Assembly: GCA_016703535.1 (NCBI GenBank)
Contig: JADJBV010000001.1
Location: forward strand, 385,014-449,013
DNA from: Deltaproteobacteria bacterium
Lineage (GTDB): Bacteria; Myxococcota; Kuafuiibacteriia; Kuafuiibacteriales; Kuafuiibacteriaceae
Direction: 5' to 3'
DNA: 64,000 nt
Made by a program: the position numbers and the translations under genes. This document shows positions 2-17,201 of the stretch, in pieces (positions within the stretch are counted from its first letter, which is position 1; every line of letters starts with the position of its first letter). A model generated the notes under the pieces. That model saw only the letters and a program-made list of their open reading frames with translations. It had not been told where the DNA came from and did not search any database.

Positions 2-3000
2 CTGGCCCAGCTGTTTCGGGAGTTGATCGAGAAGTGGGACGCGGTCGCCACCAGCCCGATCTTCCGGGATGATCTTTTGCGCAGCCGCTTGGGTGAGCTG
101 GAGGCCTTGCTCGACGAGATCCAGGCCGCCCACGACAACCGAGCTCAAGAGGGCAACGAGGTCGAACGTTTGCTGGGCGCCTTGCGCTCGGCGGGGCAGA
201 CCTTGGAGGGCCTCCGGCTGGCCGAACAATCGGTGGAGCTTCGCCGAGATCTGGATCGTACCGCCAAAGACGCGGCGGCCTTGTTCGACTCGATGAAGAA
301 GGAGGTCCTGGAGATCCGTCGCCTCGAGGAGGCCGAGGACTCCTATCGGCAGCTGGTGAACGCCCGGGGGCGGCTCCAGGGCGTGAGGGAGAACGACCTC
401 TTCATCAAGCTCCGCTTCGACGGCGAGGTGGCCCGGCCCGAGGTGCGCAGCGAGGGCGAGCTCGCGGCCAAAGCTTCAGCCGAAGCCGAGGTTTTGGTGG
501 CGGCGGAGGTCCAGGCTGAACACCTGCGCCTGGCGGCCGAGGTTCAAAGGGCCATGGACGCCAGCGCCCCGGTGAATCCGGCCGCCATGTACCAAGGCTT
601 CGATCCGGTCGCCGCGGGCCTCGTGCCGGGCCCGATGGGCGCCGAACGACCCGTCCTCGATCCGGTGGCTCAGAGCCAAGCGCAGCTTGAGGGGCAACTC
701 TCGACCTTCGGCAAGAAGCGGCAGGCCCTCCACGAGCGAAAGATCCTGGCGCGGCTCAAGCAAGAGGAGGAGCAGCGGGCCACCCGCACCTACCAGGACC
801 GAGTCCGGAACCGGGCCAACGAGATCGCGGCCCGGGTGAACAAGACCGTGGCCGATCTGGCGGGAGAGCTGGAGATCCTGGATCGCAGCCTCCGGCTGGC
901 CGAGCGGGCGCCGAAGCTCCACGCCGAGCTGCTCGAGGTGCGGGCCGAGGTGGCCGCGGCCGTCAAGGAGGCCCGGCATTGGGCCACCAAGCTGGTGGAT
1001 TTCGCCACCGCGGCGGGGCGCACACTCCTCGATGGCGCAATCTTTACGCTGGACGTTTTTTCCTTCGGGCTCTTCGGTCTGTCGAAGAAGCGGAGGGCCG
1101 CCGAAGCGGAGCAGGCCCCCACCTTGGACCTGGTGCCCACTCAGCAGCGGGCCGCCAAGCTCTTGGATCGGGTCCACGACTGGCTGACGGCCGAGATCGA
1201 GGCCCTGCCCGACTTCAAGCGGATGCCGGTGCACCGAGAGGCCACGGTCAACCTAGAGGCCGAGCTCTTGGCCGCGACCAAACTCGGCGAGTTGGCCTCT
1301 CGTTACGCCAAACTCACCGAATACTTCCAGAAGGAGGACAACCAGGTCTTCCGCCGTTATTTGTCCCAGCTCCTGGACCGGCTGGGCGGTGCCCGGGATA
1401 CGCAAGAGATCTTGCAGCGGGTGCAGGCCTTCACCGACAGCGCTGACCTGCTCTCCAACGAGATCGCGGGCCGGGGTGTGGCGTTGGAGTTGGCTCCGGT
1501 GGTGGAGTCGGTGATGAAGGCCGCCGAAACCTTGCGGGCCCAGAGCCTGAAGGATCAGACCTACCGTTTGCCCGTTCGTCAGCTCCGTCAGGCCATCCAG
1601 AACATCGACGCCTTGGGGCCCCCGGAGGATCAACCCCCGGTGTTGCGGGCGGTGCGCCAAGAGATGGAGAAGTTGGTCGGCCTGCTCACCGCGGGCGCCG
1701 ACGGTCCGCTGCGGGATCGGACCGAAGAGGCGGCCCTCGCTTTCACCCAGCTGCTCTCCCGCCGGGGTCGGACCAGCGCCGAACTCGAGGACGACGATGG
1801 CCAGGTCCAGGAAGACGAACGGACCTTGGAGGTGCGGGACGCCGATCGAGATCGGGCCACCGCCCCCACCGCTCGGGCCGAACAGAGCTTGAGTGCGTTG
1901 CCCACCGGCGGTGCGCCGTTGCGAGCGGTGGATCAACGCCGCCGGGCCGACGAGCTGGTGGTGATCCACATCGAGAGCAACCCCGTCGAGGTCAACGGGC
2001 CACCACCTGCCGTCGCCGAAGGAGAGGCGCCGCCCCCTCCCAACGAGGCGCTGTTGGCGCTGCGGGCCCGGGCGGCGGCCGCGGCTGGCAAGTTGGACAC
2101 CCAGGTCAAAAAGGCGATCGGCGGTCTGCCGGCTCAAAAGAAGGTCCTGCTGGAGGTCTTGGGGCAACTCGAGGCCCAAACCCGGGTCGCGGCTTTGGAT
2201 CAATGGCGCGAACAATTGGCCGGATTGGCGGGCCACTTGGAGGCGGTAGCGGTGGGGGGCGCCGACCCACGCCAGGCCCAAATTGAGGTGGCCCGGGCGG
2301 TTTCGGGGCTCCGGGCCGCGGTGCGAGGGCTCCAAGGCCTCGAGTGTTTGGCGCCGGCGGCCTTGGCCCAGCTCGAGGTCGTGTTGTCCAGGACCGGCGC
2401 CTTGGCCCAGGCCTTTGGCAGCGAGCTGTTCCGGGCCAAAGCCGAGGCCTGGGGCGCCGACGCACTTTTGGCGTTGCGGGAGACCGAAGCTCAACTCCTC
2501 GAACGGCGCGGTGCCCTGGAGGCCGAGGTGGTCAAGCCCAAGGCCGCCGGTGAACTCCTGGAGCGGCTCTCGACCCTCGGCGCTTGGCTCGCCAAAGACG
2601 AGTCTCGGATCGGCGCCTACTCTCGGTTTCAGCTCCTGGCCCACCTGCACCAGCGCCTGAGCGGGGTGGTCGAGGTCTTGCCGAAGAAGGCACTACCCGA
2701 GGCCCATGCGCTCCTCGTTCAGGTGGAGGGGACCGCCGAGTTGATGCGCCAACGCTCCGGCGGGCTGGAGGGCGATCAGACCGCGGCCGACCTGCATGGC
2801 GCCTACCTCGACTTGGGGCGGGCCCTGGCGGTGACCAAGTCGGAGCAGGCCCCGGTCGAGGCCTACGAAAACCTCGGCGCCTTGCTCTGGGGACTCCTAG
2901 GGGGTGGCAAGCGGGAACCGGCGCCCCTGCTCGATCGCTACCAGACCACCATCGAAGTGCTGCAGGCCTTGGAGGCCAAGGTGAAGGGGCCGGGCCGGGC

Positions 3001-5935
3001 CGCCGCCACCGAGATGATCCGGGCCGTGCACGAGCTGCGGAGCCAGGTGATGAACCAGGAACTCAGCGGCCACTTCGCCACCTGGAACCAGACCACCGGC
3101 GAGTCGATCGATCGACTCCGGGACCTCTCCGGCAACTTGGCGGAGACGGCGCGGCGCTTCGTCTCCTACGATCCTCTTTCGGAGCCGCTGACCGTCGGCG
3201 AACTGGCCGACGCCTTGACCGCGGTCTTGAAGGGCCTCGATCGGGGGCTGGTCGGTCCGGGGGCGGCCTTGCTCGCGGGGCAACTGGTCAACCTCGACGA
3301 AAAACTCCAGCTCCTGGCCGAGACGCCCAACGAGTTGGGGCGCCGGGCTCGCCTGTTGGCGGGCCGGGTCACCGAACTTTTGGCCGGCCTCAAGGTCCTC
3401 CAGGGTTCGGAGTTGATGCCCCGTTTTGCCGAGCTCACCCGCGCGGCCCACCAGACCTTCGAAGAGGCCCGCCAAAAGGGCGTCAGTCGGGAGACCTTGA
3501 GCTGGGCCGAAAAGTTGGTGGGGCGCTTGCCCGAGCTCCTCGAGGCCCCTCCGGCCCGGGTGTTGGAGGTCTTCGGGCAGGTGGAGGCCGATCTTTTCCC
3601 GGAGCTGGTGCGGAGACGAGAACGGGTCGAACAGCGGGCCCGGACGATCACCGCCGAGGCCGAAGCGGCGGCGGCGTTGCCCAAGGTCGAGAGCCAGGTC
3701 GCGGAGCTGCTCCGTCGTGAGCAACAAACCGCCACGGTGGGCGTCGGCGCCGGCAAGGTGCGGACGAACGCGAGCGCCTCCGCCGGTGGCGCTGCGGGGC
3801 TGGGCGCTTCGATCGGTGCGCCCATCGACTCGCCGGTCTTGAGCCTCCTCTCTCGCCGCCGGGCCCCCCTCGGCGTGGCCTCGGTCGAAGGAGGCACCAT
3901 CCTCGACTCTTTGGTCCTCGAAGGCCGGCCCCGGGGCCCCCACCTGGACGCGCCCGATCCCACCGACGCCCCGATCGAGCCGGGTCGAGGTCCGGGCACC
4001 GGCTCAACGGCCCGGGGCAAGGTCCTCGATCGGGACGCCCGCTTGGGCGCAGTCAAGCGCAACCCGCTGCCCTCTCGCCCCCTCGAGGAGCGCTCCAAAC
4101 CTCTCCAGGGCCTGGAGCTGAAGAAGAACTGGCTCCAGGATCACAAAAAGGCCCTGGATCAGGCGGTCAAAGAGGCGCAAGCCGCCTTGCGGGGCTCCGA
4201 CCAGGCCGATCTCGCCGAGCTCAACGACTACCAACGCCACAAGGAGGAGAACCGGGATCGGATCGCCAAGATGGCGGGGATCTTGCGCGCCCTCGGGAAC
4301 GTCGAGCTTTTGGTGTTGGTCGATCAATCGGGCTCGACCAGCGACGCCTTTGGCGAACACTCGATCTTGGACATGGAGCGGGCCGGCGCCTCCTTGTTGA
4401 TGGGGGCGGTCCAGCAGAGCGAAAGCAACTGCGCCATCTTCGGCTTCGGCGCTCGCAGCATCGGGCGCGACGGGATGGCACCGGTCGCCCAGTCGGGTCG
4501 CTTCTTCATCTTCCCCCACAAGAGCATGGCCGAGCCCTTGGACGACTCCACCGGCGACGCGGTCTTCGGGATGTTGAGCGAAAGTGATGGAGGCACCGAC
4601 ATCGACGTGGCCCTGGACGTGGTCGGGCGCCCCGAGATGTTTTCGGCGACGGCCAACCACAAGGCGGTGGTGTTGTTCACCGACGCGCAGGTCGGCAACC
4701 CCGAGGAGGTGCGGCAGAAGATCGCCGAGCTGCAGCACCGCGGCATCCCGGTGGTCCTGGTCTGTATGGGCGACGAAGGCCACGCTCGGGCCATCGATCC
4801 CGAAGGTGAATTCGCGATCAGCGTCCGCTCTTTGGACGAGATGTTGACCCGCTTGCCTTCCGTCTTCCAAAAGACACTGACCCAACACGCCAAAGCCCAG
4901 GCGGGTCACATCCTCGGCTCGGCCGCGGGCATCGGGGTCGCCGACGGTCACCACCCCCTCCAGGCGCCCGGCGCGGCCTCCTTGAACCTGGTCGACAACC
5001 TGCACCAGCCTTTGCCCGAACCCCAAGGCGACGGTGGCCTGGTGGTGCCGACAGGTGAACGCCGGGAGCAGCGCAACCTGGTCGATCGCCAGCGCTACGA
5101 ACAGGCGAAGAACGTCCTGCGCCTGGAGCGGGCCCAACGCCGAGGGACCCCCGAGCTGAAGCGGGCCAAGGTGGAGATCTTGGGCCTGGCCGCGCGGCAA
5201 AGCCGAGAAGGCATCAGCCAGACGCTGCGGCAGGCCTTCTTCCACGGCATGCCTCGGGCCCGGGGTTCGGAGATGGAGAAGCGCCAATTCTCCGGCCCGT
5301 ACTTCGATGAAGATCAGCTGCCGCTTTATTTGATCGGCCTGGCCCAAGGGGTGCCGGAGCTGCGGCTCTTCAAGCGGAGGAAGCCGGTCGGGAAGTCTCA
5401 ATCCCGCCTGGTGATCAACGCCGACATCTCGACCTCCACCAGCCGGCCCGAGGTGCGACGAGCGATGATCGAGAGCATCATTGCGGAGGTGGACGCGTAC
5501 AAAGACGCCAACCCCGGTGGCCAGGTGGCGATCATCTCCAGCTCCGACAAGGTCCGGCTCCACCAGGCCTTCGACATGGACTGGAACGACGAAGCCAAGG
5601 CTCACCTCCTGATGGAGCTCAACGAGTCCCACCCGGCCACCGACGACGAACGGGGTGACCTGGAGGCGATCGGCCTCCTCGACCTGATGGGGACCGACGT
5701 CGGCATGATCTTGACCCACACCGACGGTCAGGGAATGCCCGGGGCTGTCGACGTGACCCGTTCCGCGGCCCAACGGGGCTACGGGATGCTCAACGTCGGG
5801 GTCGGGGCCGATTGCCGCAGCGTGGTCCGCTTCGGCGAACACGGCCTCTACGCCCGAAACGTCAGCCAAATGGCCCATCGCTTTTGGGATTCGCTCCTCA
5901 AGGTATGGGAGTCGGCGGGGAGGGTGGTCCAGTAG
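2..5935 (+). CDS. Giant protein of at least 1978 aa, incomplete at its 5' end. It has a long Ala/Leu/Glu-rich alpha-helical coiled-coil N-terminal region and two vWA domains near the C-terminus.
   Basis: The reading frame is open from base 2 with no upstream stop, so the true start lies outside the window. vWA domain 1 has the MIDAS motif DQSGSTSD at about 4320 and ends VVLFTDAQ...VVLVCMGDEGH. vWA domain 2 has DISTSTS at about 5420 and ends THTDGQG. The stop codon TAG is at 5933-5935. Confidence 0.8.
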   Translation: MAQLFRELIEKWDAVATSPIFRDDLLRSRLGELEALLDEIQAAHDNRAQEGNEVERLLGALRSAGQTLEGLRLAEQSVELRRDLDRTAKDAAALFDSMKKEVLEIRRLEEAEDSYRQLVNARGRLQGVRENDLFIKLRFDGEVARPEVRSEGELAAKASAEAEVLVAAEVQAEHLRLAAEVQRAMDASAPVNPAAMYQGFDPVAAGLVPGPMGAERPVLDPVAQSQAQLEGQLSTFGKKRQALHERKILARLKQEEEQRATRTYQDRVRNRANEIAARVNKTVADLAGELEILDRSLRLAERAPKLHAELLEVRAEVAAAVKEARHWATKLVDFATAAGRTLLDGAIFTLDVFSFGLFGLSKKRRAAEAEQAPTLDLVPTQQRAAKLLDRVHDWLTAEIEALPDFKRMPVHREATVNLEAELLAATKLGELASRYAKLTEYFQKEDNQVFRRYLSQLLDRLGGARDTQEILQRVQAFTDSADLLSNEIAGRGVALELAPVVESVMKAAETLRAQSLKDQTYRLPVRQLRQAIQNIDALGPPEDQPPVLRAVRQEMEKLVGLLTAGADGPLRDRTEEAALAFTQLLSRRGRTSAELEDDDGQVQEDERTLEVRDADRDRATAPTARAEQSLSALPTGGAPLRAVDQRRRADELVVIHIESNPVEVNGPPPAVAEGEAPPPPNEALLALRARAAAAAGKLDTQVKKAIGGLPAQKKVLLEVLGQLEAQTRVAALDQWREQLAGLAGHLEAVAVGGADPRQAQIEVARAVSGLRAAVRGLQGLECLAPAALAQLEVVLSRTGALAQAFGSELFRAKAEAWGADALLALRETEAQLLERRGALEAEVVKPKAAGELLERLSTLGAWLAKDESRIGAYSRFQLLAHLHQRLSGVVEVLPKKALPEAHALLVQVEGTAELMRQRSGGLEGDQTAADLHGAYLDLGRALAVTKSEQAPVEAYENLGALLWGLLGGGKREPAPLLDRYQTTIEVLQALEAKVKGPGRAAATEMIRAVHELRSQVMNQELSGHFATWNQTTGESIDRLRDLSGNLAETARRFVSYDPLSEPLTVGELADALTAVLKGLDRGLVGPGAALLAGQLVNLDEKLQLLAETPNELGRRARLLAGRVTELLAGLKVLQGSELMPRFAELTRAAHQTFEEARQKGVSRETLSWAEKLVGRLPELLEAPPARVLEVFGQVEADLFPELVRRRERVEQRARTITAEAEAAAALPKVESQVAELLRREQQTATVGVGAGKVRTNASASAGGAAGLGASIGAPIDSPVLSLLSRRRAPLGVASVEGGTILDSLVLEGRPRGPHLDAPDPTDAPIEPGRGPGTGSTARGKVLDRDARLGAVKRNPLPSRPLEERSKPLQGLELKKNWLQDHKKALDQAVKEAQAALRGSDQADLAELNDYQRHKEENRDRIAKMAGILRALGNVELLVLVDQSGSTSDAFGEHSILDMERAGASLLMGAVQQSESNCAIFGFGARSIGRDGMAPVAQSGRFFIFPHKSMAEPLDDSTGDAVFGMLSESDGGTDIDVALDVVGRPEMFSATANHKAVVLFTDAQVGNPEEVRQKIAELQHRGIPVVLVCMGDEGHARAIDPEGEFAISVRSLDEMLTRLPSVFQKTLTQHAKAQAGHILGSAAGIGVADGHHPLQAPGAASLNLVDNLHQPLPEPQGDGGLVVPTGERREQRNLVDRQRYEQAKNVLRLERAQRRGTPELKRAKVEILGLAARQSREGISQTLRQAFFHGMPRARGSEMEKRQFSGPYFDEDQLPLYLIGLAQGVPELRLFKRRKPVGKSQSRLVINADISTSTSRPEVRRAMIESIIAEVDAYKDANPGGQVAIISSSDKVRLHQAFDMDWNDEAKAHLLMELNESHPATDDERGDLEAIGLLDLMGTDVGMILTHTDGQGMPGAVDVTRSAAQRGYGMLNVGVGADCRSVVRFGEHGLYARNVSQMAHRFWDSLLKVWESAGRVVQ

Positions 5936-5937
5936 CC

Positions 5938-6384
5938 ATGGCCCGCCGCATCTTCAATGGCCTGGAGGTCGAGATCCCCGAGGGATGGAGGGATTACTCC
6001 AGCATCGTGTTGGCGCCGCAAGAAGACGCGACAACTGGGCAACTCCCGACGATCAACTTGGTAGTGAAACGTAGGCCTGCGAGCGGTCGGGAAGGGGGAA
6101 CCCTGGTTTCCACCTACCTCGACTACTTGGCCCGGAGCTTCGGGCCCCTCCAGTCTTTGGAGACCAAAGAGGTGGACCACGGTCCGGCCCGGGCCACGGC
6201 CGTGCGCTTTCGAGCCGAACACGAAGGCCGCGCCTTCCAGCAGACGACCTTGTTGTACCGCTTTGGCGAAGACGAGATCGCCGCCACCGTCACCCAAAGC
6301 GACGGCGACCCGACCTCGACCAAGGAAGTGGAGAAGTTGCTCCACTCGGTGCGCCCCGTCGCGGGCCCGAGGCGGCGGTCATGA
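5938..6384 (+). CDS. Small 148-aa protein with DUF1795/DcrB-like fold features, of the EagR-type adaptor class.
   Basis: The ATG lies 2 nt after the stop of the giant gene. The protein carries an N-terminal FNGLEVEIPEGWRDYS motif and a C-terminal FQQTTLLYRFGEDEIAATVT motif, both reminiscent of the DUF1795 consensus. The assignment is by eye only. Confidence 0.45.
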   Translation: MARRIFNGLEVEIPEGWRDYSSIVLAPQEDATTGQLPTINLVVKRRPASGREGGTLVSTYLDYLARSFGPLQSLETKEVDHGPARATAVRFRAEHEGRAFQQTTLLYRFGEDEIAATVTQSDGDPTSTKEVEKLLHSVRPVAGPRRRS

Positions 6385-8009: not shown

Positions 8010-8449
8010 GTTTGCTCCACCCCGAGCAGCTGCGGCACCGGGCCGAACGTTTGTTCGCCGACGTGGGCGCCCTCGGCACCGCGGCGGGCCTGGGCTTCGT
8101 GTCCGCCGAACGAGGTGTGGCCAACCAAGGCATCAAGGCCTTGGCCGACGGCCCCTGGGCCTTTTTGGATCTGCGCAACGTCGAAGGCGCCAAAGCCGAG
8201 GGGTTGTTGACCGACGTTTTGGCCGCGGGCCCGAGCCAACTGTTGATCGCCGCCCACCGGGAACCGGCGCCGGCCTTGGCGCGGGTCCTCAAGGCCTACG
8301 TCGATCGGGCCCCGGAGCTCTTGTTGGGCGGCCGAAAGCTGGCGCGGCCCGAGGGCGCCGCGGTGCTGTTGGTCCTCGACGGGGCCACCAACCTGGTGGG
8401 CCTGCCCGAACCCTACCCGAGCCTGCCTTATTGGGACTTTTTGCCATGA
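8006..8449 (+). CDS. Hypothetical 147-aa protein.
   Basis: It starts at a GTG that overlaps the upstream stop as GTGA, so it is translationally coupled. Confidence 0.5.
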   Translation: MSLLHPEQLRHRAERLFADVGALGTAAGLGFVSAERGVANQGIKALADGPWAFLDLRNVEGAKAEGLLTDVLAAGPSQLLIAAHREPAPALARVLKAYVDRAPELLLGGRKLARPEGAAVLLVLDGATNLVGLPEPYPSLPYWDFLP

Positions 8450-9567
8450 CCCGCATCGGCCCAAAAGAACTCCAGGCCCTGCAGGCGGCCTTGGCGAGCC
8501 GAGACGAAAGTGGGCTCCTCGATCCCGAGCAGGTGATCCAGGACTTCGTGCGCCTGGAGCCGGGGGCCCGGGTCTACTACTCGGAGGGCGACGGTCGGGT
8601 TTCGCTTTTGGTGCCGGTTCGGGACGAATACCTGGGCCTGGATCGGGTGCCCTTCGCGCCGTCCCGCAACTTGGCCAACGTCATCCACGAGGCCAAGGTC
8701 GAAAAGAAGGAGCTGGAGCTCCCGGGGATCGGCCGCTTTTATCAGGTCGTCTTTTCGCCACTCTTCGATCTCAAGGGCAAAGCTCAAGCCGCCGCCGAAG
8801 GTGGCCCGGTCGAGGTTGCCTTTCAAGGTACCGGCCCTGGCGGCGTGTGGAGCGCCTTTTCCCGGGAAGAGGCCTGGTTCAAAGATGATCTCGCGACCTT
8901 GATCAGCCTGTCGATGGAGGGTGGCTTTCGGGTGGGGCCCGAGCTGCGCGGCCCAGGCTGGAAGCGTACGCAAGGCCCGACCTTCTCCGAGCTCGAGAAG
9001 CGTACGGCGCGCCCGGTGGCCGGCCATCAAGAGCTGGCCCAAGGCGCGATCCATGGGGCCGAGCTGGTCACCGCTCGGCCGATCCCGGTGGCGCCGGCGC
9101 TTCCCGAAGCCCGCACCGACTTCGAGCCGGAGGAGCTCAAGGCCTGGCCCGGCGAGTGGAGCCTGCCCGCCCTCGAGGCCCACTTCCCGAAGTTGCGGAC
9201 CGAAGGGCACGCGGTGGTGCTGGAGGGGGAGCGGGGCCAGGAGGTTCGGCTGGAACGAGAGGTGGTCGCGGGGATCTCCAGCTGGAGTTTGGGCCAAAAA
9301 GAGCTGCGACCGCTCCTCGACGCGGACCCCCGGACCTTGGAGCGCCTGGTGCAGGTGCTCGAGCCCTTCGCCGCCGAAAGCGCGGCCCACCCTTTGTTGG
9401 CGTTGTGGCGCGCCGAGCGGGATCAGAACGACGGTGGGGTCGTCGCCGACGTTTTGGGCGCAGCCCGTGAGCTGATGGTGCAAAAGAACGCGCGCCGAGA
9501 GGCCCAACAGGCGCTCCACAAAGCGGCCTTCAAGAAGAGCTTCAAGCCGACGGGAGGTGCCGAGTGA
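8446..9567 (+). CDS. Hypothetical 373-aa protein.
   Basis: Its ATG overlaps the upstream stop as ATGA. The 7999..9567 ORF in the track is a 5' over-extension of this gene. Confidence 0.6.
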   Translation: MTRIGPKELQALQAALASRDESGLLDPEQVIQDFVRLEPGARVYYSEGDGRVSLLVPVRDEYLGLDRVPFAPSRNLANVIHEAKVEKKELELPGIGRFYQVVFSPLFDLKGKAQAAAEGGPVEVAFQGTGPGGVWSAFSREEAWFKDDLATLISLSMEGGFRVGPELRGPGWKRTQGPTFSELEKRTARPVAGHQELAQGAIHGAELVTARPIPVAPALPEARTDFEPEELKAWPGEWSLPALEAHFPKLRTEGHAVVLEGERGQEVRLEREVVAGISSWSLGQKELRPLLDADPRTLERLVQVLEPFAAESAAHPLLALWRAERDQNDGGVVADVLGAARELMVQKNARREAQQALHKAAFKKSFKPTGGAE

Positions 9568-9932
9568 ACGACAAGCTGGTCACCGTCGAGGACTTCTTTT
9601 TGTTGCTCGGGAGCTTGCTCGAGTCGCGGCGCGCGGCCTTCCGTCGCCGCCTGACCTTGGCCTTTGCGGTGGTCGACGGTGGGCCGTGGTTCGTCGACAC
9701 CGGCGCCCCGCGGATCATCGTCCAGGAGTGGCGCCGAGACGCCCAGGTGTCGGTGTTGTGCAACCGTCGGACCCTGTCCGATCTCGTCGGCGGCCACTTC
9801 GATCCCAACGCCCCCGCCGCCGAGCACCTGTTCGTCTGGGGCGGCGACAAAGAGACCTTCTCCACCCTGGCCCAGGTGCTGGGTGGAGCCATGACCGCCT
9901 TCGGCGCCCACCTGTCGGCGCTGAAGAGATGA
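9564..9932 (+). CDS. SCP2 sterol-carrier-like domain protein of 122 aa.
   Basis: It starts at a GTG overlapping the upstream stop. The motif LSDLVGGHFDPNAPAAEHLFVWGGDKETFSTLAQV resembles the SCP2 consensus G..dp..a...G.lkv.Gd......l. Confidence 0.6.
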   Translation: MNDKLVTVEDFFLLLGSLLESRRAAFRRRLTLAFAVVDGGPWFVDTGAPRIIVQEWRRDAQVSVLCNRRTLSDLVGGHFDPNAPAAEHLFVWGGDKETFSTLAQVLGGAMTAFGAHLSALKR

Positions 9933-9942
9933 GGAGCAGCAA

Positions 9943-10818
9943 GTGGACGCAGTGAAGCGCAACGCACAGTACCTGCTCCGCCTCGTCGACGGGCTGGCCC
10001 AGCCGATCAGCGCGCCTGAAGCCCAGGCGGTGGAGCGCACCGTCCGCAGCCTGAAGCACCCCGAGCTCCTCGACCTCGGCGCCATCGAGGGTTTGGGCCT
10101 TGCCCCCAAGCTGGAGGCGGCCCTGGTGTTCCAGCTCCTCTCGCGCCGCTACCCGGACCAGGTGAAGGCGGCGGTGTACTCGGCCCACACGCTGTCGGGC
10201 GTCTTCTTGGCGGTGCTCGGCGCGAAGCCGGAGGCCGACCCAAAACGCGCGGTAGGCCAGGCGCCCGAGTTCGTTACGCGCTTCGTCGATCAGCTCCACG
10301 CGCTGCGGCCGGAGAGCGACGGGACCGGCACCAGCCTCGGGGCGGTCCGGGGCGCCAAACTCGTCTCCCACGACTTGGCCCAAGGTGTCGTTCGGCTGAA
10401 GCTCGAAGGCTCGGGTGGTGAGCCGGACCGGGACCTGAGCCTCCACCGTCGGGACGACGGTGCCTTCGACTACCAGGTCGCCGGCGGCAAGCGGCAGCGG
10501 GTGGAGACGCTGGACCTGCCGGGGCTCCGCGTCCTCCACCAGGCGCTCCACGCGGCGACGGCCGGCGGCGCTCAGGACCCGATGTTGGCCTTGCTCCGGC
10601 GCAAGACGGAGGCGGACCGCGCCGCTGTCCTCAAGGAGGCAGCCGAACACCTGGGGGACCTGGTCACCCAGAAGGCCGAGCGCCGAACCAAGGAGCTTGA
10701 GCAGCTCCGTGGGGCGTTGGAGGTCGGCTTCGCCGATTTCCGGGTCGGCTTTTTCGACAAAGACAGGATCGACGCGCTGGCCAAGGAGCTGTTCGCCGCG
10801 CCCGGGAAGAAGGACTGA
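9943..10818 (+). CDS. Hypothetical 291-aa protein whose N-terminal domain is paralogous to that of the gene at 17202-18479.
   Basis: A GGAG Shine-Dalgarno lies 6 nt upstream of the GTG start. The stretch GLGLAPKLEAALVFQLLSRRYPDQV matches GLGLSAGLRANLIFAWLNHRYPDQI in the downstream gene. Confidence 0.6.
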   Translation: MDAVKRNAQYLLRLVDGLAQPISAPEAQAVERTVRSLKHPELLDLGAIEGLGLAPKLEAALVFQLLSRRYPDQVKAAVYSAHTLSGVFLAVLGAKPEADPKRAVGQAPEFVTRFVDQLHALRPESDGTGTSLGAVRGAKLVSHDLAQGVVRLKLEGSGGEPDRDLSLHRRDDGAFDYQVAGGKRQRVETLDLPGLRVLHQALHAATAGGAQDPMLALLRRKTEADRAAVLKEAAEHLGDLVTQKAERRTKELEQLRGALEVGFADFRVGFFDKDRIDALAKELFAAPGKKD

Positions 10819-10821
10819 GCC

Positions 10822-13263
10822 ATGCCTTTTACGCCAATCGACAAGAACATCGGTTTTTCGGCCCTGTGGGCCCAAGGCAACGACGAGCAGCTCGGCGTGG
10901 TCGAGGCGTTTGGCCGCAGGCCGATGACCGAGACGGCGTTGATGGAGTTCGCCCTCGACAACCCGGGGCTCGCCGCGACCTTAAAAGAGATGGTCCAGGT
11001 GCTGCGCCAGGGCGGGCCGGCCAAGGGCAGCGTCAACGACTTCCGGGCCAACCTTAGCCGCTCCGAGCGGGTGGGGCGGACCCGGGCGAACGCTCAGCCG
11101 GTTGACGTCGAAGCGATCATGCAGGTGATCGATCGGAACATCATCGGGCAGGCCCACGTGCGAGACGCGGTGCGGGTGATGCTGGAGGCCTGGCCGGATC
11201 AACCGGAGAAGGCCCTGCCGTACGTGATGGGTATGGCCGGACCGCCGGGCGTCGGCAAAACCGAGCTCTTCCGGGCCTTGTCCTTGGCCATCTACGGCGA
11301 CCCGGAGGCGGTGGCGATCATCGACTGCAGCAAGATCTCCAAGAAGCACGAGATCGCCGCGGTATTTGGGGCCGCGCCGGGCCTCAAGGGCACTCTCGAG
11401 GAGGGTGAGGTTCCGCCCATGTGGCGGCCGCTCTTCGAGAAACAGGTGAACGGCCGGCCGAAGCTCGTCCTATTCGATGAGCTCGACAAGGTCGGCGCGG
11501 GCGAAGACTCGGCCGAGGCGCGGCAGGAGGCGGTCACCGCCTTCTCGATGACCCTGGGCCGCTTCCTCGAGGACGGCGTGCTCGGTTTCGGCAACGGGGT
11601 CTCCATCCCGCTCAAGGACTGTGTGATTGGCTTCGCCTCGAACGCAGGATCGGCGACGCGTGGGAACAAGGAAGGCGAAGGACTGCGGCAGCACTTCGTC
11701 GATGCCTTCAACGCCATCGTGCCCCCGCACATCTTCGACCGGCTCGACACGACTTTGTCTTTCGATCCACACACCCCCGAGACCCTCGCGATGGTCGCGA
11801 AGAAGATCATCGACAAGACCGTTGCCGAAGAACTCAAAGAGGTGCGCCGGGAGTACGGGATCGACGCCCAGATGCTCTTCCAACCCCCGGGCGCTTCGCA
11901 GGCGGACGGGAGCCGGAAGGAGGGCCCCGGCGAGGTGCTGACCTTCCTCGGTGAAATCGGCTATCACCCGGAACGTGGCGCACGTGGCCTCGACAAGTTG
12001 ATCAAGTCTCTGGTCAAGCCGATGATTCGAAAGGCGGCGGCGGAGATCGAAGACGGCGAAAGGGTGCTCTTCGAGTTGCGGGACAAGATCCTCCAAGCCG
12101 ACGGGACCTTCCGCGCCGGCGGCCCCCTCGACGAGGTGAAAAAGGCCCAGCTCAAGGCCCAGTTTTTCGAAGCCAAGGCTTCCATCCCGAAGGGCGTGAA
12201 CCAGGCTTCCTTCCCCCTATCCTTTCGGGTGCTCAACCCGAAGCCCGGCTTCTTCGAGTATCAAGGCGCCGCCCAAATTCCGCACGATACGAACTTTCCG
12301 CTGCTCGTCTACGGCTCAGGGGCGGTCAACGGCCGCGGCTTCATGGTCTCCCAGCCCCACCTCGACGCACCGGCGGCGCTCCACTTCTTGCGACCGGGCC
12401 TCTTCGAGCATGAAGACCGGGTCGACTCGGTGCGGCTGCCGGAACACTTGGAGAAGGCCGAGCACGACCTCAAGGCGGTGGCCCTCGACGATCGCCAGGT
12501 GATGATCTACGGCGTCGGCACCGCCAAGGGGGGGGCAATGGCCGAGGCGCTGGCCGCGATCTACGACACCAAGACCAAGAAGTGGAGGGACGCCGCTCCG
12601 CCGGATCTGCCGCTGGTCGGCGCGTCCTTGGTCGCCGGAAATGGCAAGGCGCTCCTCTTCGGCGGCCGGGTTCAGGAGAAGAGCGCGGATGGTTCCTGGG
12701 CGGTCGACGACGACCCGCTGCGGATGCGGGGACAGCCGATCGAGAACCAGGCCTATGTCTACGACTCGAAGAAGGACGAGTGGCGTTGGGTCCAGGGCCC
12801 TGAGGATGGCCTGGTCGGATCCGCGACCGTGTTCCAGCAGGGGAAGGGGTACATCATCGGCGGCGAGGAGACTTTCCGTCGGGAGAACTCCCAGATCGAC
12901 AGCTCTCGGGCCTCCCGGCGGGTCCTGGTCTTCGACTTCGAGACCGAGACCTTCGCCGCCGGCCCTCGGCTGCCGGCCAAGTTCGAGCAGGGCCTCGCTT
13001 TCGGGACCGCCTTCGCCGACGCCAACGGAGGCATCTCGGTGGTCGGCGGAGGCGTGTACCTCGACGGCGGGAGAAAGTTGGAGCCCACCCAAAGCTACTA
13101 CCGGCTCTCGGGTGGTGCCTGGCGGAGCGGAGATATGCCCCAGCCCGGTCTCTGCTTGAGTGCGCTGCCGCAGGCCGAGTCGTCCTGGGTGATCGGGCCT
13201 TTCCGCCGGGACGCCAACACCTTCGGCTTCGACATTCTCCGCCCGCGGACCACGGAGGATTGA
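10822..13263 (+). CDS. ClpA/ClpB-D2-type AAA+ ATPase of 813 aa with a single AAA module and a C-terminal Kelch-like beta-propeller.
   Basis: Walker A is GPPGVGKTE and Walker B is LVLFDELDK. IIDCSKISKKHEIAAVFGAAPGLKGTLEEGE corresponds to ClpB-D2 [30 protein letters not shown]. The sensor-2 motif is GARGLDKLIK, matching GARPLKRAIQ. The C-terminus carries repeated GG...W/Y..YD blades at about 12290-13260. Confidence 0.85.
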   Translation: MPFTPIDKNIGFSALWAQGNDEQLGVVEAFGRRPMTETALMEFALDNPGLAATLKEMVQVLRQGGPAKGSVNDFRANLSRSERVGRTRANAQPVDVEAIMQVIDRNIIGQAHVRDAVRVMLEAWPDQPEKALPYVMGMAGPPGVGKTELFRALSLAIYGDPEAVAIIDCSKISKKHEIAAVFGAAPGLKGTLEEGEVPPMWRPLFEKQVNGRPKLVLFDELDKVGAGEDSAEARQEAVTAFSMTLGRFLEDGVLGFGNGVSIPLKDCVIGFASNAGSATRGNKEGEGLRQHFVDAFNAIVPPHIFDRLDTTLSFDPHTPETLAMVAKKIIDKTVAEELKEVRREYGIDAQMLFQPPGASQADGSRKEGPGEVLTFLGEIGYHPERGARGLDKLIKSLVKPMIRKAAAEIEDGERVLFELRDKILQADGTFRAGGPLDEVKKAQLKAQFFEAKASIPKGVNQASFPLSFRVLNPKPGFFEYQGAAQIPHDTNFPLLVYGSGAVNGRGFMVSQPHLDAPAALHFLRPGLFEHEDRVDSVRLPEHLEKAEHDLKAVALDDRQVMIYGVGTAKGGAMAEALAAIYDTKTKKWRDAAPPDLPLVGASLVAGNGKALLFGGRVQEKSADGSWAVDDDPLRMRGQPIENQAYVYDSKKDEWRWVQGPEDGLVGSATVFQQGKGYIIGGEETFRRENSQIDSSRASRRVLVFDFETETFAAGPRLPAKFEQGLAFGTAFADANGGISVVGGGVYLDGGRKLEPTQSYYRLSGGAWRSGDMPQPGLCLSALPQAESSWVIGPFRRDANTFGFDILRPRTTED

Positions 13264-13266
13264 CCG

Positions 13267-15975
13267 ATGGCCCGCCCCACCATTGCCACCGCGCCCGCGA
13301 CCATCAAGCCGTCGCGCTTCGGCCTCGCGCCGGAGCACGAGGCTTGGCTCAAGCAGGAGTTCGGCGAGCAACCGTCCATCCATGACCTCGACCGGGTCGA
13401 GCGGGCCGGCGGCCTGACCGCCACCCAGAAGCGCATCCTCGACGCCGTGCGCCGATCGGTGGTGGGCAACCTGCGGGCAACCGCGGGGGTGGCCTTCAAC
13501 AAGGACGGAAAGGTCGAGCCCGGGACTCAGCGGATCTGGACTCTCCGCACGGCCAAAGTGCCGACGGGCCACCTCTCGAAGGCCGCCGCCTTCGAGGCCG
13601 AGATGAAGCCGTTCCTGATCGGCCAGGTTGGGGCGCTCAAAGACTTCAAGCGTTTCCTCGACGCCTACAACCCCCTCGTCAAGAACACGCCGCCGATGAT
13701 GGTCATCGGCGGGGAGGAGGGCCACGGGAAGTCCGAGGCCTTGGATGGGTTGGCCAAAGCGCTCTTCGGCGAAGCGGCCACGGTGTTCACCGTCGACCTC
13801 AGCAAGGTCACCGACGACATGCACGACGCGCTCTTTTCGGCCGGCGGCAAAAAGGGCGATCTTTCGGTCCCCCGTCTGATGGAGATCGAAGACAACAAGT
13901 TGGGGATCGTCCACCTCACCGGGCTTGACCAGTTGAAGGCGCGGGCGCCCCAGATCGCCGACACCCTGCTCAATCGCTTGGGCTGCCGCGCCGACGACAA
14001 GGACCACGCCTGGGTCCCCTTCGTGCTCGACTTCGACAGCGCACCCGACACCAAGCTGGCCCCGATCCTCGAGGATGCCTTGGGCAAGGCGGCGGTCCTT
14101 TTGCGCAAGGCCCAAAGCTCCTTTCAGTATCTCGACGCGGACGCGATGGCCGAGTACCTGGAGATCGCCTTGCCCCAGCTCCTGCAGCGGCCAGGGCTGG
14201 GCCAACTCCACCTTGAGTGGGACGACGAGGCCAAGGCGGCCTTCGCCGAGGTCCTCGCCACCCGCTTGACGCCCATCGATCAATTGCAGCCCCGCCTGGA
14301 GAACCTGATCCTGGGGCCGGTCAGCGCCGAGATGGTCCCGGCCGACGCGTTGCTGCGGGTCCACCTCCTCGCGGAATACGCCGATCACCCGGACAAGCTC
14401 GCGGCGGCAATCAAGGAGCTGCAGGACCCGGCGCTGGACCTCCTCGAGGCGCCCCAGATCTTCACGGTCACCGAGGAGGGGCGGGTTGCGGATCCGGCCT
14501 TGGTGGAGGGACTGATCGAGAACTCGGAACAAGTGCTCGAAGCGCTGCTGCAGTGCTCCCAGCACCATGACCTGGAGGTCCGGCGGCTGTTCCCCGAGTA
14601 CGATCGGCTGGAGCGGCTGGACCAAGTGATGGGCGAGATGGCCACGGCGCTTCGCACGCGGGCTAGGCAGAAGGGCAAGCTGATCTTCGAGCCCGCGCCG
14701 CACGAGCGGCTGGGCGGGTTGGTCGCTGAATGCGAGAAGCTGGTCGCTCAGTTGGGCCGAATGACGGCGGAGCGGCAAGCGCAGCTCGATGTGTCGATGC
14801 CCGCCCACGTGGTGGTGGCCCTCCAGAGTGTCCTCGAAGGGGTGCGGCTCATCGCACAAGCCTCCGACCTGTTGCGCGGTGAAGCGCCGACGCCAGACGG
14901 CACGCGGGCCCACGCGGCGCAGCTGAACCGGGCCATCGAAGCCCTGACCAACGCCCGCGGGCTATTGCCGATCGGCAACCTGGGCAAAAACCGGATCACT
15001 CATCAGCTGCAGGCGCTGGCCGCGAAGTGGATCGAGGCGGTTGCGGTGGCGCGTCGGTCCCAGCAAGAGGGCATGTTCCCGCTGGTACTGGAGACCGACG
15101 CTCAGGATCTGATCGATGAGGCCCGAAAGCTCCGCGGCCAACTCCCGGTCAAGCCTTTGGCTAAGGGTGAGCGAGAGACCAACGTCCGGCGTTTGTTCGA
15201 GTCCAGTCCCGAGGCCAAGAAGGAGCTGAAGGACCTCGATCGTCTCGTCAAGATGACCATCGAAGTCGCCGAAAACCTGGGGGGCCTGTCGGACGCTCAG
15301 CGCAAGACGGTGGCAGACCTAGCCAAGGAGGAGAGCGCGGACTCGTTGTCCGCTCGTCGCAAGATCGCCAAGGAGCTGATCACCTGCGAAAACGGCGCGA
15401 CCGATGTCGACGAACGTCTGGTCAGGGCCGAGTTGATCAAGCTACCGAAGGCGGCGCTCGAGCGGCTCAAGAAGACCGAGGTGAAGGTCTACGTCGTGCG
15501 GGGCAAGATCACCGACTTCTTGAAGCAGCTCCCCAAGGGCGCCCGTCCGCCCGGGTACCCCGAAGGCAAGACCTTCGACGATGTGCCGGCGATCTTCGTG
15601 CCGAAGGAGGCTGAGGGCAATGACAAGGGGGACATCGTCGTCATCGTCACCAAGGAGGTGAATGGGAACGTGATCCTGCCCGGCCTCGACGTAAAGCGCG
15701 GCTACAACCAGGTCATCCACGAGTGCCTCCACGGCTTGGATGTGCAGAACTACTACAGCACGAAGGAGGAGTTCGTCTCGGCGAGAGAGGCGGAGCTGGG
15801 CGTCCTCAGCCAGTACGAGAAGCAGGCCAAGGAAGGGAACTTCGATCGGGGGGCCGCTGAGACCTGGGCCATCACCGGCGAGCGCCTCTATGGCGGCGAC
15901 GAGAGCGTTCGCAAGGAACGTCCGCTCCTCGTCAAGGTCGTCGAGGACGCCTTCGGGACAGGGGCGTTCGCATGA
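13267..15975 (+). CDS. Divergent ClpB-D2-like AAA+ module of 902 aa with a C-terminal zincin-type HExxH metallopeptidase-like domain.
   Basis: Walker A is GGEEGHGKSE. Walker B is the atypical IVHLTGLDQ, with DQ in place of DE. A long helical middle region follows. The C-terminal HECLH motif at 15718-15732 is preceded by the hydrophobic beta-strand stretch VILPGLDVKRGYNQVI, as is typical of zincins. Confidence 0.7.
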   Translation: MARPTIATAPATIKPSRFGLAPEHEAWLKQEFGEQPSIHDLDRVERAGGLTATQKRILDAVRRSVVGNLRATAGVAFNKDGKVEPGTQRIWTLRTAKVPTGHLSKAAAFEAEMKPFLIGQVGALKDFKRFLDAYNPLVKNTPPMMVIGGEEGHGKSEALDGLAKALFGEAATVFTVDLSKVTDDMHDALFSAGGKKGDLSVPRLMEIEDNKLGIVHLTGLDQLKARAPQIADTLLNRLGCRADDKDHAWVPFVLDFDSAPDTKLAPILEDALGKAAVLLRKAQSSFQYLDADAMAEYLEIALPQLLQRPGLGQLHLEWDDEAKAAFAEVLATRLTPIDQLQPRLENLILGPVSAEMVPADALLRVHLLAEYADHPDKLAAAIKELQDPALDLLEAPQIFTVTEEGRVADPALVEGLIENSEQVLEALLQCSQHHDLEVRRLFPEYDRLERLDQVMGEMATALRTRARQKGKLIFEPAPHERLGGLVAECEKLVAQLGRMTAERQAQLDVSMPAHVVVALQSVLEGVRLIAQASDLLRGEAPTPDGTRAHAAQLNRAIEALTNARGLLPIGNLGKNRITHQLQALAAKWIEAVAVARRSQQEGMFPLVLETDAQDLIDEARKLRGQLPVKPLAKGERETNVRRLFESSPEAKKELKDLDRLVKMTIEVAENLGGLSDAQRKTVADLAKEESADSLSARRKIAKELITCENGATDVDERLVRAELIKLPKAALERLKKTEVKVYVVRGKITDFLKQLPKGARPPGYPEGKTFDDVPAIFVPKEAEGNDKGDIVVIVTKEVNGNVILPGLDVKRGYNQVIHECLHGLDVQNYYSTKEEFVSAREAELGVLSQYEKQAKEGNFDRGAAETWAITGERLYGGDESVRKERPLLVKVVEDAFGTGAFA

Positions 15976-16199
15976 GCCAGCCCAAGTTCATCGGCATCGC
16001 CGAGATGGATGAGCGGGGTGTCTTGGACCTCCGCCTCTCGGCGGCCTCGCCCTACGGCTTTGGAGGTTCCCACTTCACCTACTTCCCCGACGATCCCGAA
16101 TACGACGCGGTCATCCGGCACCTCGGCGGGATGCGCCCGGGCGAGACCAAGTCGGTCCCGCCTTGGCCCGAGGGCTCCTCGATGGGGGGTGCTTCATGA
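15972..16199 (+). CDS. Small hypothetical 75-aa protein.
   Basis: It is coupled on both sides by ATGA overlaps, at 15972 upstream and 16196 downstream. Confidence 0.45.
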   Translation: MSQPKFIGIAEMDERGVLDLRLSAASPYGFGGSHFTYFPDDPEYDAVIRHLGGMRPGETKSVPPWPEGSSMGGAS

Positions 16200-17200
16200 G
16201 CAACGGCAACCGGCCCCTCGGTGGCTACGATCCGAACAAGGCCGTCGATCGGCAAGCGGGGGCGACGGCCTTCCAGCCCAAGGTGAAGCCGGGCGCCGAA
16301 ACCCAGGCCAAGGTCGAGGGCGGGGGCGTGGAGCCGAAGCTCGCGCCCCGCACCATGGCCCTCCCACGGATCTCCGCCAAGGAGCGGCCGGTTGAGGCCG
16401 GCTATGAAGAGCACCTCGAGCGGCTAGAGGAGGCCATCGAGCAGCAGACCGCGGCGATCGTCGAGCATGTGGCCGAGATCGCCGCCGAAAAGGGCCTCGA
16501 TCCCAGCGACGTGACCCTGGTCTGGTCCTTGGACATCACCGGGAGACAGGACGTGGTCTGCTCCTTCTGCGGCCGCCCGAGCTGCACGTTCCGGCCGGTC
16601 CAGTACCGCACCCGCAACCCGGAGGTTGATCTCCTTGGGGACTCGATCATCGTGTTCCAGGAGGCCGCCGCGCGGGCGGGCGTGAAGTACGGGATCATCG
16701 TGTACGACGAGGAGGTCTTGGTGCTGAGGGACCCGGCCACCGCGGGCGACCAGGCGGAGCGGGCCGACACCCTCACGCGCTACACCCAGTTCCGGGATCG
16801 GCACGACTACCCGGATCCCAATAGCCAAAGTTGGCTGCAGCAAGCCTTGGCCAAATGGAACCCCGCCGACGCCGCGCGGCGCGTGTCCGGAGATCCGGCC
16901 GACGGTCGAATGTTCGAGGCGGCCTTCAAGATCTTCCAGCAGGTCGGCGGCGCCTTCAAGTCGATGGTGGTAGCCAAGTCGGTCGAACCGCGAGGCGGGA
17001 TCAGGGGCTTCGAGGTCCGGGCCAAGCAGGCGGGGATCCAGATGACCGGCCTCGCGGTCGGCGATCGCGCAGAGGCGGTGGCCCGGCGGTTCCTGGACCG
17101 AACGTTGATCGCCCAGGACGCCCACCAACTCCGGGATAGAGTGGGCGACGGGGTCAATACGTCCCTCCAGGCGATCAAGGACCTCCCGGCGAAGGGCTGA
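16196..17200 (+). CDS. Hypothetical 334-aa protein.
   Basis: Its ATG overlaps the upstream stop. It contains a CSFCGRPSC Cys cluster. The track ORF at 16163 is an over-extension of this gene. Confidence 0.55.
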   Translation: MSNGNRPLGGYDPNKAVDRQAGATAFQPKVKPGAETQAKVEGGGVEPKLAPRTMALPRISAKERPVEAGYEEHLERLEEAIEQQTAAIVEHVAEIAAEKGLDPSDVTLVWSLDITGRQDVVCSFCGRPSCTFRPVQYRTRNPEVDLLGDSIIVFQEAAARAGVKYGIIVYDEEVLVLRDPATAGDQAERADTLTRYTQFRDRHDYPDPNSQSWLQQALAKWNPADAARRVSGDPADGRMFEAAFKIFQQVGGAFKSMVVAKSVEPRGGIRGFEVRAKQAGIQMTGLAVGDRAEAVARRFLDRTLIAQDAHQLRDRVGDGVNTSLQAIKDLPAKG

Positions 17201-17201
17201 T

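Follow-up and report, generated by a model that had tools for sequence, protein, structure and literature searches.

The window analyzed here, a 64,000-nucleotide stretch of contig JADJBV010000001.1, opens inside a giant gene that heads a translationally coupled operon of 12 genes (Table 1). On the plus strand, frame +2 runs without a stop from base 2 until a TAG at 5933–5935 and comprises 1,977 sense codons. The initial annotation had recognized this giant frame, which is borne out, and had put it at 1,978 residues or more, a count that is one too high; it had also placed the 5′ end outside the window, and the gene does run past the window edge. Codon-position GC contents (GC1/2/3 = 0.73/0.45/0.85) match the coding pattern of the host genome. 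Because the frame is kept at 25–86% protein identity across 11 further loci, we conclude that it is a real gene rather than a chance open frame of GC-rich DNA. On the metagenomic contig L001, which is 99.5% identical at the DNA level, the gene is intact and encodes 4,172 aa, which excludes a pseudogene there, such as upstream frameshifts might have produced according to the same annotation. The eight full-length relatives measure 3,880–4,336 aa, and by this comparison positions 2–5935 of the window encode the last 1,977 residues of a predicted protein of ∼4,170 aa. For the first 841 residues of the window strain's protein, we infer the sequence from P0002, a full-length relative that is 85% identical.

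Table 1. Features of the locus in window coordinates, with the basis or character of each.
Feature	Position	Strand	Basis or character
Upstream N-terminal part of the giant	∼2,195 aa outside the window		Six AAA_5 modules and linker start; seen in L001 and P0002
Helical linker region of the giant	2..3745	+	Window residues 1–1248; open frame, composition, alignment
Hydrophobic patch AIFTLDVFSFGLFGL in linker	1037..1081	+	Candidate binding site for the DcrB-like protein
Low-complexity tether, linker to vWA1	3746..4294	+	Residues 1249–1431, rich in G/S/P/T/A
vWA domain 1, complete MIDAS	4295..4900	+	AlphaFold model residues 1–205; weak Pfam VWA_CoxE match
vWA1 MIDAS motif	DQSGS 4322–4336, GGT 4589–4597, TD 4679–4684	+	
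Inter-vWA spacer	4901..5395	+	Disordered stretch, then three-helix element before vWA2
vWA domain 2 (midasin-type MIDAS) and stop codon	5396..5935	+	
vWA2 MIDAS motif	DISTS 5423–5437, ATDD from 5636, TDG from 5720	+	
148-aa DcrB/DUF1795-like protein	5938..6384	+	No signal peptide; Pfam DcrB 17.9 bits
Kelch partner, 542 aa	6381..8009	+	N-terminal alpha/beta domain and C-terminal Kelch-type beta-propeller
Small partner, 147 aa	8006..8449	+	Conserved C-terminal motif P-Y-W-[D/E]-F-L-P; nine orthologues aligned
373-aa protein	8446..9567	+	No Pfam match
122-aa protein	9564..9932	+	Specific to the window clade
291-aa protein	9943..10818	+	
813-aa protein	10822..13263	+	Hsp100 D2-like AAA+ (AAA_2, ClpB_D2-small) fused to Kelch repeats; Pfam, NCBIfam
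902-aa protein	13267..15975	+	Weak P-loop match; weak anthrax-lethal-factor-like (ATLF) match, HECLH
Last three operon genes, tightly packed (75, 334, 425 aa)	15972..18479	+	Gene calls in L001

The AAA part lies outside the window, and its six-module layout was read in the relatives P0002 and L001. In P0002, each of six segments returned AAA_5 (dynein-type) as its best Pfam match, and HMMs of the single modules cross-matched one another in register; L001 likewise carries AAA_5 modules upstream of the part represented in the window. Among the six modules, only the third and fourth retain invariant Walker A and Walker B motifs.

The linker that follows is 1,450–1,610 aa at full length in the family, and its window portion can be aligned to the corresponding region in 11 relatives. 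Ala, Leu, Glu, and Arg make up 49.5% of giant window residues 1–1330, in line with the composition first described. The coiled coil proposed along with it was not confirmed, as Pro and Gly contribute 12% and a crude heptad scan returned four windows of ∼30 residues with strong a/d contrast and no more. Given this sparse heptad signal, the long coiled coil was dropped, and a helical bundle fits the linker better. Because the upstream part holds six AAA_5 ATPase modules, we read the ∼1,400 helical residues as the linker of a midasin-type mechanoenzyme and not, as originally suggested, as a fibrous or scaffold element; the accompanying proposal of adhesion found no support. Within the operon, a Kyte-Doolittle value of at least 1.6 was reached once, at a borderline 1.63 over residues 342–360 of the giant, where the hydrophobic patch AIFTLDVFSFGLFGL is located. 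The segment bearing this patch is 15–30 aa shorter in the clade without the DcrB-like gene, and the patch is possibly a binding site for the DcrB-like protein. The tether between the linker and the first vWA domain contains 42% G+S+P+T+A and 13% D+E in the window; across the family it spans 104–188 aa, with 34–56% G/S/P/T/A and 10–25% D+E.

The AlphaFold model covering the C-terminal 548 aa of the giant (mean pLDDT 81) contains two Rossmann-like alpha/beta domains. Per-block pLDDT in vWA1 lies mostly at 71–88, while in the spacer residues 207–219 fall below 50 and helices occupy residues 267–320. This spacer is 165–167 aa long throughout the family. Both MIDAS signatures (DxSxS...T...D) are invariant in the eight full-length relatives, which are 27–42% identical, and together with the model this invariance upholds the early claim of two vWA domains with intact MIDAS.

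Midasin is the best solved match of the family by both sequence and fold. A phmmer search of the AAA region against the PDB matched midasin with an E-value of 2.7e-21 and CbbQ/NorQ with 3e-5, and a family profile matched midasin with E-values of 1.1e-81 and 6e-85 over seven significant stretches, one alignment pairing 619 profile positions across modules 2c-3-4n with Mdn1 1283–1914 (632 residues). The MIDAS region matched Mdn1 (E = 2.4e-5), human MDN1 (1.4e-5), and the Rea1 MIDAS (1.4e-4). By these matches, kinship to midasin is clear for both the AAA modules and the MIDAS domain of the family. Modules 2 and 4 scored 58 and 50 bits against single-module NorQ/CbbQ and 35 and 16 bits against individual midasin modules, so that the evidence for a specific sister relationship to midasin does not extend to every module. 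In the profile search against the PDB, no sequence similarity was detected between the family linker and that of Rea1, which has stem, middle, and top domains. The unstructured D/E-rich region that midasin has between linker and MIDAS domain is absent, with no 100-aa window anywhere in the family proteins exceeding 29% D+E.

The standing of midasin as best solved match, together with a narrow bacterial distribution, would fit a scenario in which a eukaryotic midasin gene moved into bacteria and then diverged, the architecture then being secondary and silent on origins. We consider such a transfer very unlikely, since only the AAA modules and the MIDAS domain are similar, the latter at 14–17% identity when structurally aligned. 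Furthermore, the missing linker similarity and D/E-rich region, the extra vWA domain, the divergence of family members down to 25–27% identity among themselves, their own conserved operon partners, and a GC3 of 0.85 that is typical of the host genome argue against a recent transfer of midasin.

The giant family is very rare. An exhaustive search with the C-terminal part as query found 22 matches among 1.84 billion representative proteins, and an alignment-based scan of genome contigs found loci in 4 of 185,579 species genomes. All carriers are uncultured metagenome-assembled genomes (MAGs) of Myxococcota or Bdellovibrionales type. A word-index search with the whole 1,977-aa fragment returned no homologue, the index being apparently saturated or without giants, and the same search with the last 548 aa returned one 334-aa fragment; scans of metagenome and genome contigs that used one query sequence, the AAA region of L001, gave no match.

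Around the giant, the accessory gene set varies by clade and the core is constant, down to a minimal locus of three genes. The Kelch partner is encoded in every readable locus of the family, and the small partner (∼140 aa) at every locus with sequence beyond the Kelch gene. A structure model of the Kelch partner built from seven sequences was mediocre (pLDDT 62.7); in its N-terminal domain, likeness to a ubiquitin-like (UBL) domain was not demonstrable and no invariant acidic residue was found. The small partner has a conserved acidic-aromatic C-terminal tail. A roadblock/LC7-like assignment of this protein was considered and dropped, as its sequence matched neither Pfam nor the PDB.

The 148-aa gene begins 2 bp past the stop codon of the giant, and its TGA overlaps the ATG of the next gene. 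Its annotation as DUF1795-like stands at the family level, where six of seven orthologues match Pfam DcrB (best E = 3.1e-9) and one has a precomputed DcrB match at E ≤1e-5; for the window copy itself, DcrB (PF08786) is the sole match and falls below the cut-off (17.9 versus 27.2 bits). The orthologues are 39–93% identical to the window copy, and PDB sequence searches with the DcrB-like protein matched no Eag structure. The gene co-occurs with the Hsp100-like ATPase gene. Four of 12 loci lack it, while the giant and Kelch genes are kept in every readable locus, and it is thus dispensable for the giant family.

These data bear on the model put forward in the annotation, in which the giant is a large secreted effector, built as a fibrous coiled-coil adhesin or scaffold and delivered to a secretion system by a DUF1795/Eag-type adaptor. 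[quoted passage not shown] Nevertheless, the N-terminal half of the giant is a six-module AAA+ ATPase, which largely refutes this model. The giant has no signal peptide-like or transmembrane segment apart from the borderline linker patch (Kyte-Doolittle 1.63), the prePAAR motif AARxxDxxxH was sought in the giant proteins and not found, PAAR and Eag-type transmembrane domains are likewise missing, and searches of the window and the family loci recovered no T6SS or other secretion gene. With the sparse heptad signal and the absence of the DcrB-like gene from a third of the loci added to this, we dropped the T6SS/Eag reading and regard a secreted effector served by the small gene as highly improbable.

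The remaining operon genes are less readily assigned. The first ∼190 aa of the 373-aa protein are homologous to the N-terminus of 960–990-aa proteins at other loci, and the 291-aa protein resembles the 425-aa protein (17202–18479) over ∼90 residues at the N-terminus. A Pfam scan of the 334/345-aa and 425-aa products gave no match; the GC3 of the 334-aa and 425-aa genes is of coding type. The ATLF match of the 902-aa protein scores 24.3 bits, under the Pfam cut-off of 27.4, and an HExxH motif is visible in the translation, suggesting that this protein is possibly a metalloprotease effector. In all, the operon defines about ten protein families without known function.

Modeling the mechanism on Rea1/Mdn1 and on MoxR-vWA pairs, we propose that the giant is probably a midasin-like, ATP-driven machine that pulls or remodels its client through a MIDAS-mediated contact. 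The metal ion at a MIDAS site would capture an acidic residue on a client or adaptor, with the Kelch and small proteins of the operon as leading candidates. Linker remodeling would be driven by predicted ATP turnover in the third and fourth modules, and the movement of the linker would pull the MIDAS-bound client, leading to extraction or remodeling of that client. In loci carrying both, the DcrB-like protein and the Hsp100-like ATPase may form an accessory holding and unfolding module.

It is possible, if somewhat unlikely, that the same machine serves in biological conflict (defense, predation, or an abortive response) in the manner of MoxR-vWA systems, with the giant sensing or remodeling an invader or prey protein via MIDAS and thereby freeing or activating a co-encoded effector such as the ATLF-like HExxH protein. 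The very patchy and rare distribution in Myxococcota- and Bdellovibrionales-type MAGs, the clade-specific accessory genes around a constant core, the weak ATLF/HExxH protein of the window clade, and weak PADLOC matches for the Hsp100-like ATPase (DolB, 2.3e-10) are consistent with such a role, as is the precedent of ternary MoxR-vWA systems, which include propellers and variable effectors and are concentrated in multicellular bacteria (Kaur et al. 2020, PMC7159879). However, the three-gene minimal form has no recognizable effector, the giant, Kelch, and small proteins match no known defense-system model, and the ATLF match is below threshold; moreover, the surroundings are ordinary chromosomal genes, with no mobile-element gene among those scanned or annotated.

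Single-chain rings of six AAA+ modules (midasin, dynein, RNF213) are regarded as eukaryotic inventions, and the literature we found sets the six-AAA midasin-type architecture at the origin of eukaryotes. In the literature on midasin-like and giant bacterial AAA+ proteins we found no such bacterial protein described, an older mention being possible. An unlikely reading is that the fused six-AAA ring, linker, and MIDAS did not originate in eukaryotes but existed in Myxococcota/Bdellovibrionota-type bacteria, already with a beta-propeller partner; the family would then descend from, or be kin to, the bacterial lineage that gave rise to eukaryotic midasin and, via midasin, to the dynein motor core. 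With its shared overall plan, the family could be a prokaryotic outgroup with which to root midasin/dynein evolution, bearing on the bacterial share in eukaryogenesis, or it could represent a striking convergent assembly from MoxR and vWA parts. Because it has two predicted active sites only and candidate partners in the same operon, the proposed bacterial machine would also be a simpler system in which to study force transfer and linker remodeling toward a MIDAS-bound client.

Among known systems, the DcrB-like protein resembles the Eag/DUF1795 chaperones in its PF08786 family match, its length of ∼150 aa, its lack of a signal peptide, and the position of its gene directly beside that of the presumed client; unlike Eag clients, the putative client here has no prePAAR, PAAR, or transmembrane domains, and there is no T6SS locus. 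MoxR-class AAA+/vWA pairs (NorQ/NorD, CbbQ/CbbO, RavA/ViaA) are built from single-module subunits of ∼270–500 aa that form homohexamers and work with a separate vWA protein, whereas the bacterial giant fuses six modules, linker, and vWA domains in one chain. The ternary systems of Kaur et al. (PMC7159879) are alike in combining a MoxR-clade ATPase, a vWA domain, and a beta-propeller, in having helical accessory proteins and, in some variants, a second AAA+ chaperone, and in their enrichment in multicellular or social bacteria. Their MoxR is single-module, and their vWA protein carries a propeller of about four blades fused at its C-terminus, whereas here the Kelch propeller is a separate gene and the ATPase modules and vWA domains share one chain; a six-module giant is not described in that study.

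The closest counterpart is midasin (Mdn1/Rea1/MDN1), a eukaryotic AAA+ mechanoenzyme of ribosome biogenesis. Its clients Rsa4 and Ytm1 consist of a UBL domain and a WD40 propeller. In pre-60S ribosome maturation, a pathway that bacteria are not known to have, assembly factors with a beta-propeller dock onto the midasin MIDAS through their UBL domain, as represented by the MIDAS-UBL complexes 6qta, 6qtb, and 8ql1 in the PDB. The bacterial family differs from midasin in having two MIDAS-bearing vWA domains instead of one, a G/S/P-rich rather than D/E-rich tether, Walker A and B kept in two modules, a Kelch rather than WD40 propeller as partner, and an operon that includes DcrB-like and Hsp100-like genes. 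It shares with midasin a single chain of more than 4,000 aa, six tandem AAA_5 modules, a helical linker of ∼1,500 aa (∼1,700 aa in Rea1; PMC11603028), a flexible tether, a C-terminal midasin-type MIDAS domain with intact DxSxS...T...D, and a beta-propeller protein as partner.

The giant protein joins six AAA_5 modules, of which two bear catalytic motifs, to a long linker, flexible tether and two conserved MIDAS sites in a single chain, and conserved partners are encoded alongside it. Translation of the window in frame +2 showed no stop from base 2 until the TAG at 5933–5935, giving 1,977 sense codons; the initial annotation was off by one in this length, while the giant frame, the two vWA motifs and the coupled 148-aa gene that it described all stand. 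GC content at codon positions 1/2/3 (0.73/0.45/0.85) is like that of other genes of the window (67% GC). Ala, Leu, Glu and Arg together make up 49.5% of the first ~1,330 window residues, and two vWA-like regions occupy the last 548. Because the 148-aa gene and ten more same-strand genes follow with overlaps or gaps of ≤10 bp, the giant through position 18479 is one long operon. Neither transmembrane segments nor N-termini resembling signal peptides were seen among the operon's proteins, all of which are thus predicted to be soluble. Elsewhere in the window, a second, unrelated giant of 1,752 aa combines one AAA_5 domain with DUF7902 and DUF3686 ('ATPase involved in DNA repair', E 9e-201); with its two same-strand neighbors, neither of which has a Pfam match, it possibly forms another AAA_5-based system.

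The initial annotation also held that the giant extends past the window's 5' end. A search for exact matches to the 148-aa protein led to a metagenomic contig (L001, JGI 3300056850) with 99.5% identity to the window across 16.4 kb, in which the giant gene is unbroken and encodes 4,172 aa, bearing this out. In L001, AAA_5 (dynein-related) domains precede the window part (E 3e-24; 3,331 translated residues), and a phmmer search of this AAA region against all PDB sequences ranked midasin at the top (E 2.7e-21), ahead of CbbQ/NorQ (about 3e-5). An exhaustive phmmer search of 1.84 billion representative proteins with the giant's last 1,199 residues returned only 22 hits, eight of them full length (3,880–4,336 aa): P0002 (4,213 aa) is 85% identical, and the other seven are 28–35% identical over matched stretches. 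When 185,579 species genomes were scanned with a pattern from the family alignment, four loci emerged, all in MAGs labeled Deltaproteobacteria, Bdellovibrionales or Myxococcota. The rest of the window suits such a genome, with Ser/Thr kinases bearing WD40 repeats, a PEGA-domain protein and a hybrid histidine kinase. One 1,159-aa protein, with 13 WD40 repeats behind its Ser/Thr kinase domain, is typical of Myxococcota-like genomes.

The AAA+ region lies outside the window and was examined in relatives. When P0002 was divided into six segments, AAA_5 was the best Pfam match of each (E 2.8e-6, 1e-8, 0.038, 6e-15, 0.082 and 9e-5), the third giving an additional weak 'Midasin AAA lid' match, and HMMs built per module cross-hit the other modules in register; by these comparisons the region is six AAA-like modules. 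Canonical Walker A motifs occur in modules 3 and 4 only (GPASSGKT and GATGTGKT), and the Walker B residues (D-E) of both are invariant. The MIDAS signatures (D, S, S, T, D) of vWA1 and vWA2 are likewise invariant in all eight full-length proteins, at 27–42% identity. The last 548 aa were modeled with AlphaFold at a mean pLDDT of 81, and Foldseek agreed on a vWA fold for both domains.

Features of the giant, its operon and other genes discussed (window positions unless a locus is named; lengths of the giant's parts are across the family)
Feature	Position	Strand	Length	Remark
Helical linker			1,450–1,610 aa	window begins within it
Hydrophobic linker segment	1004–1102			giant residues about 335–367, between conserved W and FG motif
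Tether			104–188 aa	G/S/P/T/A-rich, not D/E-rich
vWA1			about 190–200 aa	MIDAS motif complete
DQSGSTSD	4322–4345			
Inter-vWA spacer			165–167 aa	length constant
vWA2			about 180 aa	MIDAS domain of midasin type
DISTSTS	5423–5443			
DcrB-like gene	5938–6384	+	148 aa	starts 2 bp past giant's stop; TGA overlaps ATG of 542-aa gene
Kelch protein	6381–8009	+	542 aa	
Small protein	8006–8449	+	147 aa	
291-aa protein	9943–10818	+	291 aa	
ATLF-like protein	13267–15975	+	902 aa	
425-aa protein	17202–18479	+	425 aa	
Second giant	25625–30886	-	1,752 aa	
Neighbor of second giant	30923–33082	-	720 aa	
Neighbor of second giant	33218–33988	-	257 aa	
Kinase-WD40 protein	44827–48306	+	1,159 aa	
DcrB-like gene, L008	22645–23091			
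159-aa gene, L013	15846–16325	-	159 aa	

Partners were compared across twelve loci. A Kelch-type protein of about 500–540 aa is present at every readable locus (L010 ends before the gene), as is a small protein of about 130–147 aa wherever sequence continues past the Kelch gene (L010 and L011 stop short of this). The DcrB-like gene occurs in eight loci and is missing from four (L012, L013, L015 and L016); an Hsp100-like ATPase accompanies it on every contig that extends far enough to show this. L012, L015 and L016, from three related MAGs, hold the giant, Kelch and small protein only, followed by unrelated opposite-strand genes, and L013 has this set plus one extra gene of 381 aa. A 159-aa gene in L013, beside the most divergent family member, has a weak T3SS_needle_F Pfam match. 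In most loci the Hsp100-like ATPase is two-ring and ClpB/ClpV-like (890–974 aa), scoring far under the ClpB and TssH equivalog cut-offs; that of the window clade instead joins one D2-like ring to Kelch repeats. The small protein, for which no Pfam or PDB relative was found, has an invariant Trp at residue 51 and a tail, P-Y-W-[D/E]-F-L-P, conserved in 9 of 9 orthologues (window, L007–L009 and L012–L016). Its acidic tail is a candidate MIDAS ligand. The 291- and 425-aa proteins apparently have an N-terminal region of ~90 aa in common; over 92 aa, the latter shares 36% identity with the L008 orthologue of the former, which suggests modules duplicated inside the operon.

The sole Pfam match of the 148-aa protein is DcrB (PF08786, the former DUF1795), scoring 17.9 bits where the cut-off is 27.2. 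Since six of seven orthologues match DcrB (best E 3.1e-9), assignment to this family is reasonable, in agreement with the DUF1795/DcrB-like call made initially. For L008, the relative with 85% identity, gene calling gave only a 93-aa product, probably a start-codon miscall because all 148 codons are open (93% identical to the window copy). Eag chaperones are cytoplasmic, while DcrB is a periplasmic lipoprotein; with no signal peptide, the 148-aa protein resembles the former more. Clients of Eag chaperones carry prePAAR, N-terminal transmembrane domains and PAAR and occur in a T6SS context (PMC7773334). Here all of these features are missing, and the suggestion that the protein chaperones a large secreted effector finds no support. 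A hydrophobic linker segment is found in loci carrying the DcrB-like gene and is shorter by 15–30 residues in three giants (the L012, L015 and L016 clade) out of the four whose loci lack the gene; the fourth, P0016 of L013, keeps a comparable segment. The difference hints at a putative binding site but stems from a single evolutionary event.

By analogy with Rea1 (PMC11603028) and MoxR-vWA pairs (PMC7159879, PMC13036017), a MIDAS-bound metal ion would capture a client or adaptor by an acidic residue, candidate ligands being the conserved D/E in the small protein's tail and the Kelch protein's N-terminal domain. ATP hydrolysis by modules 3 and 4 would then swing the linker and pull the client, and in expanded systems the DcrB-like protein and Hsp100-like ATPase may hold or unfold a hydrophobic client segment. 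Such a device may act on a large cellular complex, as a machine for its assembly or for extraction. It may also serve in conflict or predation, as suggested by the patchy distribution, by accessory genes that vary and by a weakly ATLF-like HExxH protein. This 902-aa protein has an anthrax-lethal-factor-like match around HECLH (24.3 bits, below the 27.4 cut-off) and a weak P-loop match at its N-terminus; possibly it is a metalloprotease effector restricted to the window clade.

The family profile matched S. pombe Mdn1 at E 1.1e-81 (6e-85 with more sequences in the profile) over seven or eight significant stretches, a summed score that gains from six-fold repetition. Within it, 619 profile positions (end of module 2, whole module 3, start of module 4) align to Mdn1 1283–1914, a 632-residue stretch (80 bits, E 3e-22); one alignment through modules 2-3-4 indicates that the spacing of consecutive modules is alike too. 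The vWA2 region matched MIDAS domains from Mdn1 (E 2.4e-5), human MDN1 (8ql1_A, 1.4e-5) and Rea1 (6qt8, 1.4e-4), with no further PDB vWA protein attaining E 0.01. However, module 2 scores 58 bits against NorQ and 35 against the best midasin module, module 4 scores 50 against CbbQ and 16 against midasin, and similarity between the giant's linker and that of Rea1 is undetectable by sequence. Furthermore, the D/E-rich region of Rea1 (PMC11603028) is absent from the bacterial giant, which has two MIDAS domains where midasin has one. Hence, we describe the giant as midasin-like in plan and related in parts, and withhold strict membership of the midasin family. The literature searched does not describe a six-AAA protein of midasin type in bacteria, although an older mention is possible. 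MoxR has been considered the closest prokaryotic homologue, with the six-domain fusion arising early in eukaryotic evolution (PMC3495828), and a bacterial midasin-like giant bears on the origin of midasin and dynein architecture.
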